The notes under the pieces: model-generated | Seen by the model: the letters and a program-made list of their open reading frames with translations, nothing else | The model's database searches: none | Told to the model about the DNA's origin: nothing | Position numbers and translations under genes: made by a program | Shown: piece after piece, positions 14,589 to 28,184 of the stretch | How positions within the stretch are numbered: the first letter of the stretch is position 1 | Layout of the letters: every line of letters starts with the position of its first letter | Origin: Candidatus Heimdallarchaeota archaeon | GTDB taxonomy: Archaea > Asgardarchaeota > Heimdallarchaeia > Heimdallarchaeales > Heimdallarchaeaceae | NCBI GenBank assembly: GCA_021399345.1 | Contig: JAAFKI010000045.1 | Location: 191,965-255,964, forward strand | DNA: 64,000 nt | Direction: 5' to 3'

Positions 14589-15239
14589 GTGAAATTAGCA
14601 TTTGTTTTCGCTCACCCTGATGATGAAGCTTTGAGTTCAGGTGGAACCATTGCTAAATATACTACTTTGGGACATGAAGTTAGTACTTTGTGTTTATCAT
14701 CAGATTCCGTGCGAAAAGAGGAGTACTTTAACGCAACCAAGATACTAGGAGTTCAAAAGCCTATAATTTTTGATTATCCAAATGTAGAAAGTAAAAAACA
14801 AGAGATAACAAAAGATTTCATTGATTATTTACTCAATTTTAGGCCAGAAATCGTTGTCACTCATCTAGAAAATGATTATCACATCGACCATAGAGCAACT
14901 TACAGCATTGTTTTGGAAGGAATCGAATGGGCAGCTCATGAAACACAGCATAAGAACCCTCATCTTGTAAATAAATTATATGTTGTTGAAACTACAATCT
15001 TGATTCCAAATCCACATATTTTAGTTGATATTAGTGATTATTATGATCAAAAAGAAGAAGCAATAAAATGCTATAAATCACAGCTTTCCAAAGGAGGGGA
15101 TAATTTCTACATTAATTTTCATAAAAATAGAACACAGATGAGGGGAGCTCAAGCTTCAACAAAACATGCAGAGGCATTTCTTAAAGTTTCATTAAAGCAA
15201 AACAGCCCTTTTTATGAAAAGAAGCATTCAGAGCTTTAA
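14589..15239 (+). CDS. PIG-L family deacetylase, probable BshB
   Basis: AHPDDE, HIDH, KEEAIKCYKSQ, AEAF motifs; bshA and bshC are in the same window. Confidence 0.8.
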   Translation: MKLAFVFAHPDDEALSSGGTIAKYTTLGHEVSTLCLSSDSVRKEEYFNATKILGVQKPIIFDYPNVESKKQEITKDFIDYLLNFRPEIVVTHLENDYHIDHRATYSIVLEGIEWAAHETQHKNPHLVNKLYVVETTILIPNPHILVDISDYYDQKEEAIKCYKSQLSKGGDNFYINFHKNRTQMRGAQASTKHAEAFLKVSLKQNSPFYEKKHSEL

Positions 15240-15273: not shown

Positions 15274-15349
15274 TGGCGAGCCAGAACGGATTCGAACCGT
15301 CGACCAACTGCTCCGCAGGCAGCCATTCTATCCACTGAACTACTGGCTC
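15274..15349 (-). tRNA. tRNA-Arg(GCG), CCA encoded
   Basis: Acceptor GAGCCAG/CTGGCTC; anticodon arm GCTGC-CTGCGGA-GCAGT; TTCGAAT T-loop. Confidence 0.95.
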
Positions 15350-15970: not shown

Positions 15971-17173
15971 ATTACTGACATTACAGATAATCATAGAATT
16001 AAGGAGTTACTGAAGAGAATAAAGAACATGAGAAGAATTGGATTAGATACATATATGCTACCAATCCAAGGTGCTGCTTCAAGCAAAGTGCTTATCGATG
16101 GTCAAGAATATTTAATGCTTGGTTCTTATAGTTACTTAGGACTCATAACCCATCCAGATATAATTCAAGCAGGTCATGAAGCTTTAGATAAATATGGTAC
16201 TGGAGCGGGAGGGGTTAGATTATTAACAGGAACTACAGATTTACATCGTTCACTGGAGAAAAAAATTGCTAGTTTTAAGAGGACTGAAGATGCTTTAGTT
16301 CTGAGCAGCGGTTACGTAACAAATATGACAGTAATATCAACCTTGTTTGGGAAGGATGATTTGGTTGTAATTGACAAATATGATCATCAAAGTATTTATG
16401 ATGGTTGTATTCTTTCAAAATCAGATTGGAAAAGGTTCAATCATAATGATATGGATGATTTATCGAGGGTTCTTGAAGAGAATAGAGAAAACTATAAACG
16501 TGTGATAGTTATTGTTGATGGAGTTTATAGTATGGATGGAGACATAGCTCGAATGCCTGAGATTATCGAAATAGCAAAACAATATGATTCTTCAACAATG
16601 GTAGATGAAGCTCATTCAATTGGAACAGTGGGCCCAAATGGAAGAGGAGTTGATGACTATTTTGATCTTGAACCTGGTGCTGTCGATATCTACATGGGAA
16701 CTTTAAGCAAAGCAATTCCATCAATTGGAGGGTATATTGCTGCGAAAAAGGATGTGATTACTTATTTGAAATTCACTTCCAATGCGTTTATTTTTAGTGC
16801 AGCTCTTCCACCAGTTTCAACAGCAGTCGCTCTCAAAGCACTTGAGATTATTGAAACAGACAAAGATCGTATAAAATCCCTACAGAAAAACTATACTAAG
16901 TTCATTAATGGTGTTAAGGGAATAGGTTATGACACATTAAAGAGCAAGGACACACCAATTGTTCCTGTTGTAATTGGAGATGATGTTAAAACATTTCGCT
17001 TTGCTAAGCAAATGAAAAAGGAAGGAATTTTAGTTCCACCAATTGTATTTCCTGCAGTTCCTAGAGACAAAGGAAGATTAAGATGTTGTGTTATGGCAAC
17101 CCATACTGAAGAGGAAATCGATTATATTATAGAAACCATGGAAAAAATAGGTAAAAGCCTAAAAGTTATCTAA
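15971..17173 (+). CDS. PLP-dependent alpha-oxoamine synthase (BioF/KBL/serine palmitoyltransferase family)
   Basis: SYSYLGL, DHQSI, DGVYSMDG, DEAHS, GTLSK. The frame is open back to ATT at 15971, after a GAGGTGA SD; the first ATG is at 16028. Confidence 0.85.
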   Translation: MTDITDNHRIKELLKRIKNMRRIGLDTYMLPIQGAASSKVLIDGQEYLMLGSYSYLGLITHPDIIQAGHEALDKYGTGAGGVRLLTGTTDLHRSLEKKIASFKRTEDALVLSSGYVTNMTVISTLFGKDDLVVIDKYDHQSIYDGCILSKSDWKRFNHNDMDDLSRVLEENRENYKRVIVIVDGVYSMDGDIARMPEIIEIAKQYDSSTMVDEAHSIGTVGPNGRGVDDYFDLEPGAVDIYMGTLSKAIPSIGGYIAAKKDVITYLKFTSNAFIFSAALPPVSTAVALKALEIIETDKDRIKSLQKNYTKFINGVKGIGYDTLKSKDTPIVPVVIGDDVKTFRFAKQMKKEGILVPPIVFPAVPRDKGRLRCCVMATHTEEEIDYIIETMEKIGKSLKVI

Positions 17174-17237: not shown

Positions 17238-17565
17238 TGGACGAAGCGAAAGGGCAACTTTCGGCATATTGCTGAGGAACCTCCTGACTCCGAAAAACGA
17301 TGTGGATGCAAATCCACCATATGAGAATATGGCTCTTGGAACAGAAACGAACGCCCCATTTTCGTAAACAATGATGCGATAAATAGAGTGGTAACATTTC
17401 TAGAAGTAAATTGCTGAGAAGAAATTGGGATACGATGAAACGGCCAAACATTGTGGAGCAAGCTTAAGTAGAGTTCATATGAACTGGGTAAAGCGCTTAG
17501 ATGAATGTTGCCAGGAAGATCCTAAAGGCTTCCGAACAGAATCAGGGGTATTTCTGCATCGTCCA
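17238..17565 (+). ncRNA. rnpB: RNase P RNA
   Basis: P1 TGGACGA/TCGTCCA; P4 GAGGAACCTCCTGA pairs with AACAGAATCAGGGGTAT; ACAGAAAC and TGAAACGGC conserved regions; GAGCAAG; GC-richer island followed by a T-tract. Confidence 0.9.
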
Positions 17566-17663
17566 ACAAATTTCTTTTTTTTTAGATGCTGAAAATTGCT
17601 TACAGTAAGTTTATTAAACCTCTTCTAAGATGTTACTTCGAATAAAAAAATAGACGTGTATAA

Positions 17664-19424
17664 ATGCTTAGGAGGTTATCGAACAGTAGCATTCTATCTA
17701 TACTTGTAGGATTTTCCCTTTTTATTACAATATTAAATCCTGCATCTAATATAGCGATAGCTATGAAACCTCCTATAGGGGACAATTCTCAAATTATTTA
17801 TCAGAGCTATGAAAATGCTACTTTCATTTTTTATCCATATTTTGAAGAAATAACAAGAGGAGAGGATGACCTCAATCTAACCATGAAATTCTGTTATGAG
17901 AATATTACTTTGATTCCAGATTCAAACATTTATTATAATATTACAAACATACTGGATGAAAAAATTTTCGAAGAGAAAGTATGGGTTAATACAACTGCAG
18001 AATTTAATCGTACAATTCCATGGCAGACATTTAATGGTCAAGATGATGGAAACTATACAATCACTGCTGTTGCGAATAGTACTACAACTACATCTTATAA
18101 CATTACAACTTATTTTACTCTCATAGTTCCTGATTTTGGACAAGTAAGGATGTTCTTTCCATCAAATCCTGCATTTCTTATTAGGAATCAAGATAATCAA
18201 GTTTCATGTGTTATTTCGAATGTAGGTGGAACTACAGTAACTAATGTCTCAGTAACTAATGAAATTACAAAAACTGGAACAGTTGGTTCAATTACAAGAT
18301 CTTATTCTATTTACAATTTAGAAATAGCTGAAGGAGCATTCCACGAAGATATAATAGGTTTTTATCCAGATACTTATCTCTATCAAAAACACTCTTTCAC
18401 TATCACTTATCGAACAATAGGTGATCCAGAGACGCTTAGAGTGTATCTTAGTGACCCCATTAAAATAATTGTGATGCCCGATATTGTCGTTGAAAATTTT
18501 CAGTTACCAATAAATGTGACCATGGGAGAGAAATATATTATTACGACTAATATAAATAACAGTGAAGAAGAATCACTAATTATTATTCCAAAGATTGTTT
18601 GTGATCAAATCAGTTTTTATGATGAATCTGCTATATCAATTCCAAAAGGTAATAATATAATCTCTATTTCAGGAACTCCTCTAGTAGATGGAGCATCTTC
18701 ACTCTACTTTGGTTTTGATTTAGAATGGACTACTGTTTCTGAAACAAAGTGGTATTCTATCTTACTTTTTACACAGTATCAACTTATATATATCATTCCA
18801 CTAGAAATCCCCCCCATTATTCTACATCCTGGTGTATTTTTTGGTATTGTTTTTTCATCTCTTTTCATAGGATTAGCTTACTTTTCAAGAGATATTATAC
18901 TTGGTATTGCTAGAAGAACTAGAACAACAAGTTCTCGGATTTTCCCTGAAGTTTCTTATCCTTTGGAAACAGTAATTCTTGATGGTTCAAATATTGCTTG
19001 GGAAGAGAAGAACGACTCTAACAAACCACAAATTAACAACATTGAATCCATGATTAACCGATTGAGTAGAGCCAATTTTAAGAAAATTATAACTGTAGCG
19101 GACGCAGCATTACGCTATCAGATAGATGAACAAAAAAGATTAGACAGATTAGTTAAGGAAGGAGCTATGAAAATGTTACCCGCAAGAGTTGATGGAGACA
19201 AGTTCATTCTAAGGATAGCAGAAGAGGAAAATGCTATGATTGTAAGTAATGATATGTTTAAGGAATTCAGAGAATCAACTCCCTGGATTGATGAAAGAAG
19301 GATCCCTTACACTATTTTAGATGGAGAAGTATACTTGCACCCAACTTCAGTTCTTCCCTCAATTGAAATAGGTAGTAAAGAGAATAAAGAGAGAAAAGAA
19401 AACGATAATACCTTTGAAACTTAA
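17664..19424 (+). CDS. Single-pass membrane protein with extracellular Ig-like region and cytoplasmic Zc3h12a/NYN-type PIN ribonuclease domain
   Basis: Signal peptide; NxT-rich beta region; TM GVFFGIVFSSLFIGLAYF; VILDGSNIAW...VADAAL...DGDKFIL...IVSNDMFKEF. Confidence 0.85.
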   Translation: MLRRLSNSSILSILVGFSLFITILNPASNIAIAMKPPIGDNSQIIYQSYENATFIFYPYFEEITRGEDDLNLTMKFCYENITLIPDSNIYYNITNILDEKIFEEKVWVNTTAEFNRTIPWQTFNGQDDGNYTITAVANSTTTTSYNITTYFTLIVPDFGQVRMFFPSNPAFLIRNQDNQVSCVISNVGGTTVTNVSVTNEITKTGTVGSITRSYSIYNLEIAEGAFHEDIIGFYPDTYLYQKHSFTITYRTIGDPETLRVYLSDPIKIIVMPDIVVENFQLPINVTMGEKYIITTNINNSEEESLIIIPKIVCDQISFYDESAISIPKGNNIISISGTPLVDGASSLYFGFDLEWTTVSETKWYSILLFTQYQLIYIIPLEIPPIILHPGVFFGIVFSSLFIGLAYFSRDIILGIARRTRTTSSRIFPEVSYPLETVILDGSNIAWEEKNDSNKPQINNIESMINRLSRANFKKIITVADAALRYQIDEQKRLDRLVKEGAMKMLPARVDGDKFILRIAEEENAMIVSNDMFKEFRESTPWIDERRIPYTILDGEVYLHPTSVLPSIEIGSKENKERKENDNTFET

Positions 19425-19495: not shown

Positions 19496-20212
19496 ATGAA
19501 TATGGACCAAGGATATCAAGATTTTTCTAACTTGAAAACAGGTTATAATGATAACATAAAGTTAGAAAATCTTCCAAAGGATTATTTCTATAGTACAGAA
19601 TATGATTACATGACGCTACCAGAGGTCCAGTTATTATTAACTTTGTCAGATTCGAATATCGCCTACAGTTTTTCAGGATTAAGAAAAACAACACTGCTGC
19701 ATCAACATCAACTGGCTAAGGCTCTAAAGAGATTAATTGATAGAAACTATCTATCCAAAAGAGACAATGGTACATATGAAACAACTAATACTGGTAGCAG
19801 ATATACAACAGAATTAATCAAAGATCTAATCAGTAATAAAGCAGTAAATATTCAGAATAATAGCTTTTACTCTCAGTGGAAAGAAATTCATCTAATTCCA
19901 CCTCTAAAATCTGAATTATTAGTATCAGTTTTTGAAAAAAGATGGTTTGGAGGTTTTAGATTCCTATTCAAAAGAGAAAACAGAGATGGAACTGAGCTAT
20001 GCTGGGAAGATAATGACAGTAATAGAGTCTACTTGTATATTCAAAGAAGAGGTTCAATCAAATTTGAATATAGAGCTACTGTTCCTAGTTACAGTAAAAT
20101 GGAAGAAGCTACAAACTGGATAAGTAATGAAATTCTAAATCTAGGTGAAGTTAATATAGAAATTGAAGATTATGAAATTGTTGACGATTTTGAGAAAAAT
20201 ACATACAATTAG
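19496..20212 (+). CDS. Winged-helix domain protein
   Basis: SFSGLRKTTLLHQHQLAKALKRLIDRNYLSKRDNGTYETT. Confidence 0.65.
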   Translation: MNMDQGYQDFSNLKTGYNDNIKLENLPKDYFYSTEYDYMTLPEVQLLLTLSDSNIAYSFSGLRKTTLLHQHQLAKALKRLIDRNYLSKRDNGTYETTNTGSRYTTELIKDLISNKAVNIQNNSFYSQWKEIHLIPPLKSELLVSVFEKRWFGGFRFLFKRENRDGTELCWEDNDSNRVYLYIQRRGSIKFEYRATVPSYSKMEEATNWISNEILNLGEVNIEIEDYEIVDDFEKNTYN

Positions 20213-21656: not shown

Positions 21657-22685
21657 GTGAAGAGGATTATGAAAGTTTTTCTGTCAAAAGCTATTAGAGT
21701 AAACGGAAAAGATTGGAAATTAGCTTGTGATAGTACTAACTCACAACACTATCCTCTCGTTTTTTATAGTCATGCTCATTCAGACCATATCCCAAGAAAA
21801 TTACCAAAAACAGATATAATAACATCACCCGTAACAAAGATTCTATTGAAGAATTTTGTGTCAAATTTTGATGATGGAAATTTCTTCGATTCTTACTCTA
21901 TTGATGATGTTACTTTCAAACAAAAATCCAGCGGCCATATTGTGGGCTCTACTGCATTGAAAATTGAATCTTCTGAAGGAAAACTAGTTTATACAGGAGA
22001 TGTTTCAATACGAGATAAGGGATTCTTAGAACCTTTTTCACCAGAAAAGTGTGATATCTTAATCATTGAAAGTACATTTGGTTCGCCAGATTACGTCTTT
22101 CCATCTTATGATGGTGTTATAAAGGAAGCACAAGAACAAATATCCCATTATTTGGATAACAATATCCCCGTAGTTTTGATGGGTTATGCCCTAGGAAAAG
22201 CACAAATGTTGTATAATGCTTTTTCCCATCTTTCTGAAAATATAGTTATGCATGGAGCTAATTTCAAGATTAATTCCCTACTTCTAGCTGAGAAAATTAA
22301 GGGAGCCATAACTGCAATGGATTATATCGAAGCAAAAGAATCTAATTTCCTTGGACAATCTAATAAATGGATTCTTTTTACACCTCTGAAATCTGGGCGA
22401 GATTTCTTTTTTTCTTATTTGAAGAAAAAATATAACGCGAAATTGTTTGCATTCAGTGGTTGGGCAATATCAAGCAGCTATAAATTCAGAATGTCAGTTG
22501 ATCATAGTTATCCTATAAGTGACCACGCTGATTACAATGAATTATTAGAGATTTGCAAAAAAAGCAACCCAAATCAGATTTATACAATCTATGGACATAC
22601 AACAAGATTTGCAGCAGAGTTAATAAAACATGGATTTAACGCAATACCCCTTTCTAAGCAGACTATACTAGATTCATTCTTCTAG
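21657..22685 (+). CDS. MBL-fold beta-CASP nuclease with C-terminal PIP box
   Basis: SHAHSDH, GHIVGS, YTGD, IESTFG, GYALGKAQ, SDHADY; terminal QTILDSFF. Confidence 0.88.
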   Translation: MKRIMKVFLSKAIRVNGKDWKLACDSTNSQHYPLVFYSHAHSDHIPRKLPKTDIITSPVTKILLKNFVSNFDDGNFFDSYSIDDVTFKQKSSGHIVGSTALKIESSEGKLVYTGDVSIRDKGFLEPFSPEKCDILIIESTFGSPDYVFPSYDGVIKEAQEQISHYLDNNIPVVLMGYALGKAQMLYNAFSHLSENIVMHGANFKINSLLLAEKIKGAITAMDYIEAKESNFLGQSNKWILFTPLKSGRDFFFSYLKKKYNAKLFAFSGWAISSSYKFRMSVDHSYPISDHADYNELLEICKKSNPNQIYTIYGHTTRFAAELIKHGFNAIPLSKQTILDSFF

Positions 22686-28093: not shown

Positions 28094-28184
28094 TGGAGCC
28101 CTGAGGGGGATTTGAACCCCCGTTCTGCGACTTTCTCGACTTTGTTACGAGATCGCCGCTCTAGCCAGGCTGAGCTATCGGGGC
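28094..28184 (-). tRNA. tRNA-Thr(CGT) with 13-nt intron at 37/38 (28133-28145), CCA encoded
   Basis: GCGAT-CTCGTA[ACAAAGTCGAGAA]A-GTCGC; CTCG/CGAG helix at the splice junction; U73 discriminator. Confidence 0.9.

Follow-up and report, generated by a model that had tools for sequence, protein, structure and literature searches.

The window analysed here is a 64,000-nt stretch of contig JAAFKI010000045.1 from Candidatus Heimdallarchaeota archaeon. At 17664-19424 on the forward strand it carries a 586-aa open reading frame (ORF), read from the ORF list and its translation, in which a Regnase-type ribonuclease (RNase) domain is placed behind a receptor-like ectodomain. Heimdallarchaeia are the archaeal group nearest to the eukaryotes, and the gene is one of their core genes; its RNase domain, of the NYN type, is at least as conserved as the adjoining proteasome subunits. 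The product is predicted to be a type I single-pass membrane glycoprotein. A signal peptide, a sequon-rich beta ectodomain, one transmembrane (TM) helix and a cytoplasmic NYN domain had been named as its parts in an earlier reading of the DNA that used the letters alone (the sequence-only reading), and all of them were recovered by hydropathy, AlphaFold2 (AF2) modelling, sequon counts and Pfam. We regard this predicted architecture and topology as very probably correct.

The NYN domain

PF11977 (RNase_Zc3h12a) was the only Pfam family matched above threshold by the protein (residues 434-553, 66.2 bits against a cut-off of 23, E = 3.5e-18); below threshold there were only WxLIP_HBD, TRAP_beta and CARDB, with E-values up to 1. 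All 34 members of the family alignment (A2) matched PF11977 as well. The nearest solved sequences were without exception eukaryotic NYN domains of the Zc3h12a type (KHNYN, ZC3H12C, ZC3H12B and ZC3H12A), in agreement with the sequence-only reading, and a profile of the family aligned with ZC3H12C, ZC3H12B, ZC3H12A and KHNYN over the whole domain with E-values from 8.8e-8 (ZC3H12C) to 1.5e-4.

The acidic catalytic set that had been noticed at the outset consists of the motifs DGSN (440-443), DGD (510-512) and VSND (527-530). All three are present, with D480 (in a DAALRYQ motif) and E534 as further landmarks. D440, N443, D480, D512, N529 and D530 are invariant in the 34 members, at an overall identity down to 21-25%. 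In the profile alignment D440, N443, D512, S528, D530 and E534 correspond to D141, N144, D226, S242, D244 and D248 of Regnase-1, and D480 is an extra invariant aspartate of the archaeal family. The AF2 model of the region showed alternating beta and alpha elements (436-558) with a predicted local distance difference test score (pLDDT) of approximately 80-86; fold searches with the whole model were dominated by the immunoglobulin (Ig)-like domains of the ectodomain. The cytoplasmic part contains no cysteine, and the same is true for 31 of 32 homologues. Neither a CCCH zinc finger nor any zinc-finger Pfam match was found in the protein. Judged by its sequence, the domain is of the Zc3h12a/Regnase/KHNYN type with the catalytic set in place. 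The catalytic domain is one that the protein shares with Regnase, but it does not belong to the ZC3H12 family in the narrow sense.

A survey of the PIN-like superfamily listed the function of bacterial PF11977 proteins as unknown, counted only 23 archaeal PF11977 sequences and recorded TM-linked PIN domains only for an unrelated group of the VapC type (PMC5499597).

Topology and ectodomain

Topology was derived from hydropathy, the positive-inside rule and the asymmetry of N-x-S/T sequons. Two hydrophobic stretches were found by hydropathy, residues 5-33 and 389-410. The second corresponds to 18828-18893 and agrees with the TM helix that had been placed at about 18830-18885. The first has the make-up of a signal peptide, with a basic n-region (MLRRL), a hydrophobic core of 13-18 residues and an A-x-A-like end of small residues (IAIA/M), and this pattern is kept across 32 homologues; in the AF2 model it forms a helix (3-24) followed by disorder (25-48). 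The 17 residues behind the TM helix carry a net charge of +4, against -1 before the helix. The helix ends in an interfacial motif, YFSRD, in which Y406 is invariant and F407, S408, R409 and D410 are kept in at least 90% of the sequences.

Twelve sequons lie in the ectodomain, where 4.6 +/- 1.9 would be expected (5000 shuffles, P approximately 2e-4), and one lies in the cytoplasmic part. The asymmetry recurred in every one of 32 homologues, which have 9-17 sequons outside and 0-2 inside despite a similar asparagine content on both sides. At eight positions the sequon is shared by 22 or more of the 32 homologues, and N80, N92, N138 and N194 are kept in at least 30. Since the linker behind the helix (18894-18965) is only about 25 residues long, the NYN domain is predicted to lie close under the membrane.

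The whole-protein AF2 model, built on a 32-sequence alignment, had a pLDDT of 79.8. It showed, in this order, an N-terminal helix, a disordered spacer, three beta-sandwiches, a long TM helix (389-419), the disordered basic linker (413-429), an alpha/beta region (436-558) and a disordered tail. Residues 51-379 (approximate limits) were all-beta and formed three beta-sandwich domains in both AF2 models, that of the whole protein and that of the ectodomain alone. The latter reached a pLDDT of 92.8 and a predicted TM-score (pTM) of 0.80, and because of this high confidence the three Ig-like domains probably form a fairly rigid unit.

Ig domain 1 contains an invariant R65-G66 (within a TRGEDDL motif) and the conserved sequons N80, N92 and N138. 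Its top structural match was the MG2 domain of alpha2-macroglobulin (Z 12.0, root-mean-square deviation 2.3, 95 residues). Ig domain 2 has an NxGG..xxNV motif with N186 and G188 invariant, and it gave Pfam matches below the cut-off to CARDB in 7 of the 34 members (best E 2e-4) and to TRAP_beta in 6. Ig domain 3, the fastest-evolving of the three, closes with a conserved LEWxTVSETKWYS strand. The Atlas structure search returned CARDB, NPCBM_assoc and COG1361 S-layer-family surface proteins with TM-scores up to 0.53 (Atlas feature score 0.86). Further structural matches were the macroglobulin (MG) domain arrays of complement and TEP proteins, Ig domains of transglutaminases and glycosidases, PapD/ASH domains, and archaeal S-layer and fusexin domains. 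A relationship to TRAP was considered and is not claimed, as TRAP-beta (Z 9.1) was one of many tied rows. In all of the searches (Foldseek with the whole model, VIA-align against 48,161 chains, and the Atlas structure and feature searches) no specific fold match appeared, only generic ones of the Ig, MG, CARDB and S-layer types. According to the models, the ectodomain is a typical archaeal surface Ig array, and its fold is uninformative with regard to a ligand.

Distribution and selection

A word-indexed search found 66 homologues, nearly all of full length; those with names were labelled Heimdallarchaeota or Heimdallarchaeaceae and included Candidatus Heimdallarchaeum aukensis. Some 30 more distant clusters (26-37% identity) came from an exhaustive HMMER search of 1.84 billion representatives; Heimdallarchaeota LC_2 and a metagenome-assembled genome of the Kariarchaeaceae are among their named members. 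Wherever these distant sequences were complete, signal peptide, ectodomain, TM helix and NYN domain were all kept. A homologue search restricted to the NYN region returned proteins of the Heimdall group only.

When a full-length profile was run against 400 Asgard genomes, the full architecture was found in 39 of the 46 genomes of the GTDB order to which the window belongs, with full-length matches in 26 of 30 genomes of family f1, 1 of 1 of f2, 2 of 3 of f3 and 10 of 12 of f4. Beyond this order the profile matched the NYN part only. The matching genomes of the order, most of them less than 90% complete, mostly had a single copy, and in the genome from which the window comes (3.27 Mb, 88.6% complete) PF11977 is represented by one gene only. 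Because the architecture recurs across the order, the fusion is real and not an assembly chimera, a case that the sequence-only reading had left open; it constitutes an order-wide single-copy core gene. Our search of the literature on NYN, Zc3h12a or Regnase in connection with Asgard archaea or Heimdallarchaeota, and on membrane-anchored archaeal RNases, found no paper on the protein. Nor was a paper found that describes any protein of such architecture, in keeping with the initial statement that no characterised example was known.

The two halves of the protein evolve very differently. In mean pairwise identity the NYN domain stood at 0.82-0.84, against 0.35-0.46 for the three Ig domains (Ig3 0.35) and 0.43 for the TM helix. 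Comparison of the window with its closest relatives, L011 and L013 (synonymous divergence, dS, about 0.2-0.3 and unsaturated), gave ratios of nonsynonymous to synonymous divergence (dN/dS) of 0.03-0.04 for the NYN domain and 0.24-0.51 for the Ig domains (Ig3 0.44-0.51), the ectodomain evolving about ten times faster than the NYN domain. In the third close pair, L011 versus L013, dN/dS was 0.14 for Ig3 and 2.4 for Ig2 (dN 0.064, dS 0.027). The latter value rests on a tiny dS and is not read as positive selection; it could be due to noise, recombination or local diversifying selection. In comparisons with Heimdallarchaeum and a second genus, identity is 79-84% for the NYN domain, against 58-69% for the alpha and beta proteasome subunits encoded beside it. 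Purifying selection on the NYN domain is very strong, and the constraint over its entire surface hints at conserved macromolecules as partners or substrates. The ectodomain evolves in the manner of an exposed surface protein, yet it is still under purifying selection.

Membrane-linked and soluble NYN proteins of other archaea

The Heimdall protein is not the only archaeal NYN protein with a membrane anchor. In a protein from Promethearchaeota (P0216) a signal peptide is followed by a PQQ-type beta-propeller, a TM helix and the NYN domain. In the Thermofilaceae form (P0112 and P0215) an unrelated ectodomain of about 200 aa lies between the signal peptide and the TM helix that precedes the NYN domain. 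In three proteins of about 200 aa in total (P0166, P0146 and P0101) a single N-terminal TM helix directly precedes the NYN domain. P0223, from Hodarchaeales, combines a two-TM hairpin and a weak Prok-RING match with the NYN domain, and P0145 is a multi-TM form. These proteins share with ours a membrane anchor that has the NYN domain on its cytoplasmic side; they differ in that their ectodomains are non-homologous or lacking and that their NYN domains fall outside the clade described below, and none of them has been characterised.

In a FastTree phylogeny of 167 NYN domains the Ig-TM-NYN proteins formed one clade (49 rows, local support 94), with the other membrane-linked forms outside. The tree is based on few columns and is poorly resolved; the rows without a TM helix inside the clade are truncated ORFs. 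Regardless of the resolution of the tree, the NYN domains of other archaea are tethered to the membrane through independent fusions, because the ectodomains are not homologous. Taken together, these sequences suggest that linkage to the membrane is important and that the ectodomain is an exchangeable unit.

Short NYN ORFs of about 170-200 aa from another Asgard family, which match from model position 409, were considered as further TM-anchored forms; the readable one, L032, has no N-terminal TM helix. Soluble forms were also found. Two proteins of about 900 aa from other Asgard genomes (P0104 and P0160) carry a C-terminal NYN domain behind sub-threshold matches to STAND/AAA_16 NTPases, an architecture like that of conflict systems.

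Proposed function

We propose that the protein is a metal-dependent NYN endoribonuclease whose catalytic domain, some 25 residues away from the inner membrane face, would cleave RNA in its vicinity. It is probable that it acts as an RNase at the membrane. As no RNA-binding specificity domain is present in the protein, its location would be likely to define its substrates, and the best candidates may be mRNAs in translation on membrane-bound ribosomes. Activity could be controlled by lateral clustering or positioning through the three-domain Ig-like ectodomain, following a logic like that of IRE1 or of single-pass receptor kinases, with no kinase involved. Since a single TM helix cannot relay a conformational change, clustering would be the likeliest form of such control. 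RNase activity, substrate class and control from the outside are what we infer from this arrangement. Control by the ectodomain is favoured because the ectodomain is kept under selection and because NYN domains were repeatedly fused to different ectodomains, as is typical of modular receptors. The full mechanism, in which RNase activity would be gated by the ectodomain, is offered tentatively as quite possible.

Several observations weigh against it. The position of D225 in Regnase-1 is occupied by a glycine (G511), and D510 lies one residue earlier, so that this acidic residue has no direct equivalent. Bare TM-NYN forms exist, so tethering alone can suffice, and together with the generic S-layer-like fold of the ectodomain they speak against gating. 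The structure searches revealed no identifiable ligand site in the CARDB/macroglobulin/S-layer-type Ig array, which could be purely structural. When loci of four families were compared, no neighbouring gene was conserved across the order that would indicate a pathway. Finally, RNA over the NYN gene amounted to one low-depth, 94%-identical contig (18347-18495), although contigs cannot prove absence of expression.

The first of these points would agree with a non-catalytic or non-RNA role, in which the NYN domain serves as a platform for binding RNA or protein, or cuts DNA: a canonical acidic position of Regnase is not conserved in place. The conservation of the surface would agree with it too, since it exceeds the needs of an active site and could reflect binding to a conserved machine. 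On the other hand, every other metal-binding residue is invariant across sequence divergence of approximately 80%, as is the additional D480, and this pattern, which active PIN-like nucleases typically show, counts against a non-catalytic role. We consider such a role most improbable.

The bare TM-NYN forms bear on a different alternative, namely that the protein is a constitutive housekeeping RNase anchored in the membrane in the manner of RNase Y or RNase E, its ectodomain being a structural part of the envelope or an anchor embedded in the S-layer that conveys no signal. Proteins of this kind in other archaea show selection for tethering itself. A single-copy core gene among housekeeping genes, the extreme conservation of the NYN domain and an ectodomain with its closest likeness in CARDB/COG1361 S-layer-family surface proteins would all be expected of such an enzyme. 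A plain anchor would have no need, however, for 350 residues that purifying selection maintains, invariant positions and conserved glycosylation sites among them. It would also leave unexplained why NYN domains were joined, repeatedly and independently, to different large ectodomains, one of them a beta-propeller, which is a typical ligand-binding fold. We regard the constitutive anchor as tenable but doubtful.

Within the ectodomain-gated mechanism, a more specific version can be envisaged which would follow the logic of IRE1 and of regulated IRE1-dependent decay (RIDD) without a kinase. The Ig ectodomain would sense the state of the envelope, the secretory load or a ligand, would cluster, and would switch on the RNase against mRNAs on membrane-bound ribosomes. 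A likeness to IRE1 was part of the sequence-only reading. The outline of the layout (ectodomain, TM helix, cytoplasmic RNase domain) bears it out in part, and the generic CARDB/macroglobulin-type array contains nothing recognisable as a ligand site. We consider this version unlikely. If it were true, outside-in control of mRNA decay at the membrane would be pre-eukaryotic and a possible forerunner of Regnase-type decay associated with the endoplasmic reticulum (ER).

Gene features and genomic neighbourhood

The features of the gene are collected in Table 1.

Table 1. Coordinates of the NYN gene, of the parts of its product and of its putative promoter element in the window
Feature	Position	Strand	Basis or remark
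Whole gene, type I membrane protein P0001 (predicted), 586 aa	17664..19424	+	stop codon within coordinates
Signal peptide (predicted), Sec-type, aa 1-33	17664..17762	+	hydropathy, conservation in 32 homologues, AF2 helix
Ig-like beta-sandwich domain 1, aa 51-155	17814..18128	+	AF2 models, structural match, conservation
Ig-like domain 2, aa 160-271, CARDB-like	18141..18476	+	sub-threshold Pfam, Atlas structural matches
Ig-like domain 3, aa 273-379	18480..18800	+	AF2, identity, dN/dS
Transmembrane helix, aa 389-410	18828..18893	+	Kyte-Doolittle peak 1.98, AF2 helix 389-419
Basic juxtamembrane linker, aa 411-434, net charge +4	18894..18965	+	charge count, AF2 pLDDT <50 at 413-429
Cytoplasmic Zc3h12a-type NYN (PIN-like) domain, aa 435-560, predicted endoribonuclease	18966..19343	+	Pfam, profile alignment, conservation, dN/dS
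Charged, variable, disordered C-terminal tail, aa 561-586	19344..19421	+	AF2 pLDDT <50 at 566-586; mean identity 0.26
TATA-like box TTTATTAAA	17610..17618	+	about 45 nt 5' of the ATG, downstream of the oligo-T run behind rnpB; read from the sequence

The gene for the archaeal RNase P RNA, rnpB (RF00373, 151.8 bits; 17242-17561, forward strand), lies 102 nt upstream of the NYN gene on the same strand. In the genus of the window the order of genes is an AONS-like aminotransferase, rnpB, the NYN gene, a winged helix-turn-helix (wHTH)-like 238-aa gene, psmB, psmA and an RMMBL metallo-beta-lactamase nuclease. Most of this order is kept in three more genera of the family, one of which has no aminotransferase; in Heimdallarchaeum the wHTH gene is also inverted. 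Synteny with rnpB and psmB, to which the sequence-only reading had drawn attention, therefore holds within Heimdallarchaeaceae but does not extend across the order, rnpB being near the NYN gene in none of the 13 loci from the other three families. Families f1 and f2 have the wHTH gene and psmB/psmA beside the NYN gene in common. In several genomes of the sister families f3 and f4 two genes adjoin the NYN gene, one for a conserved protein (about 605 aa; L022:5020-6837, L025:8862-10670, L026:2142-3959 and related loci) that matches PIN_12 weakly and one for an AlaX-like (tRNA_SAD) protein. Its neighbours in genus g13 are genes for an alkaline phosphatase and a glycerate-kinase-like protein.

Between rnpB and the ATG there is an oligo-T run (17571-17583), followed by the TATA-like box TTTATTAAA, which is probably the NYN gene's own promoter. 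RNA contigs from four metatranscriptomes covered rnpB only (17240-17551) and ended before this box. Co-transcription with rnpB was considered and dropped, the RNA contigs being limited to rnpB, though contigs cannot show absence. The adjacency is read as inherited gene order with separate transcription and not as a functional operon. The near-identical rnpB contigs came from four marine-sediment or vent metatranscriptomes, and one of them had adapter flanks at 17253 and 17545.

The position of rnpB might nevertheless be taken to indicate that the protein is an enzyme of tRNA or RNase P-linked processing, either like PRORP or accessory to the RNase P RNA encoded upstream, given that the adjacency on the same strand is kept in four genera of the family. 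PRORP and PF11977 belong to the same PIN-like group (PMC5499597), and weak PRORP matches were obtained for 2 of the 34 members. Against this, the adjacency is absent at all 13 loci of the other families, the two genes are separated by the oligo-T run and the TATA-like box, and the RNA contigs stop at the 3' end of rnpB. PPR and zinc modules are missing from the protein, and a membrane tether makes little sense for general tRNA processing. We hold this explanation to be extremely improbable.

The neighbourhood also bears on the suggestion of the sequence-only reading that the protein might be part of an antiviral system. In antiviral defence or abortive infection the protein would be a sensor: attachment of a virus or damage to the envelope would be perceived by the ectodomain, upon which the NYN domain would break down RNA of the cell or of the virus. 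The soluble Asgard proteins P0104 and P0160, with PF11977 in the place of a C-terminal effector behind STAND/AAA_16 regions (sub-threshold Pfam), are in accordance with this, and NYN domains are discussed as effectors of conflict systems in the comparative-genomics literature. The raised dN/dS of the ectodomain, 0.24-0.51 in two pairs of the window with its relatives, fits as well, as does the Ig2 value of 2.4 in L011 versus L013, at a very small dS. However, no model of PADLOC-DB 2.0 matched the protein, and the locus does not lie in a defence island, its neighbours being rnpB, the wHTH gene, proteasome subunits and the RMMBL nuclease. The gene is single-copy, near-universal in the order and set in a stable housekeeping neighbourhood rather than a variable island, and its NYN domain is far more conserved than the usual effectors of defence. 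The antiviral suggestion thus fared poorly, and we judge it very unlikely.

Downstream of the NYN gene, 19496-20212 (+) encodes the 238-aa protein, which has a weak winged-helix match (SarA/Rot-like; PADLOC WH_III-A, AbiEi-like) and a C-terminal half without assignment. The gene at 21657-22685 (+), directly 3' of psmB/psmA and co-oriented with the NYN gene, specifies a protein that joins a metallo-beta-lactamase fold to an RMMBL RNA-specificity domain. The cluster of rnpB, NYN gene, proteasome genes and RMMBL nuclease gene recalls the linkage, known in archaea, between genes for RNA processing and for the proteasome. The region is flanked by an aminotransferase gene of class I/II and of the alpha-oxoamine-synthase type (16028-17173, +) and by a gene for a PIG-L family deacetylase (14589-15239, +). 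A tRNA gene is located at 15277-15349 (-). A second tRNA match, at 28097-28184 (-), is 88 nt long, which is longer than usual, and may carry an intron.

Significance and comparison with known systems

Regnase-type NYN RNases are known as soluble eukaryotic regulators of mRNA decay and antiviral defence, and their prokaryotic relatives are, to our knowledge, essentially unstudied. We know of no archaea with RNase E or RNase Y. Were the protein described here to cut membrane-proximal mRNAs, RNA decay in archaea would be organised in a new way. With gating from outside in addition, the protein would be the first receptor RNase of the single-pass type beyond the IRE1/RNase L family and would bear on the origin of ER-linked mRNA surveillance. 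The repeated independent tethering of NYN domains to the membrane suggests a general principle and not a one-off.

Among known proteins, Regnase-1/MCPIP1 (ZC3H12A), ZC3H12B-D, KHNYN and N4BP1 are in the same Pfam family, PF11977, and have the same motif set (DGSN...D...SND...acidic). These eukaryotic RNases are soluble and pair the NYN domain with CCCH zinc-finger, KH or UBA-type modules, all of which are missing from the archaeal protein. The latter instead adds a signal peptide, three Ig-like domains and a TM helix, and differs in its catalytic domain by G511 at the D225 position and by the extra invariant D480. Regnase-1 acts on translating mRNAs at the surface of the ER, and in concept this comes near to an RNase tethered to a membrane.

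What resembles IRE1, on paper, is the outline, with a putative sensor domain on the far side of the membrane that a single TM helix joins to a cytoplasmic endoribonuclease. The likeness is one of analogy and not of homology. The kinase domain of IRE1 and its KEN/RNase L-type nuclease are not found in the archaeal protein, for which Pfam gave PF11977 only above threshold, and the fold of the ectodomain is unrelated. The archaeal and bacterial CARDB, NPCBM_assoc and COG1361 surface proteins and the MG domains share the Ig-like beta-sandwich fold of the ectodomain; they have no cytoplasmic enzyme domain, and the likeness is one of fold only and carries no functional information.

Bacterial RNase Y and RNase E resemble the proposed enzyme as general RNA-cleaving enzymes at the cytoplasmic face of the membrane. 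Like PIN.COG4956 they belong to other nuclease families (HD, RNase E/G and VapC-type PIN for RNase Y, RNase E and PIN.COG4956, respectively), and all three have N-terminal anchors and no large glycosylated ectodomain. PIN.COG4956, with four TM helices, PIN and TRAM, is a precedent, itself uncharacterised, for TM anchors on PIN-like domains (PMC5499597). PRORP combines PPR repeats and a zinc-binding module with a PF16953 nuclease; the archaeal protein has no PPR repeats and no PF16953 match, the weak PRORP matches noted above being confined to 2 of the 34 members. On present comparison the protein is best classified as a member of PF11977 that is neither Regnase proper, nor IRE1-like by descent, nor a PRORP.

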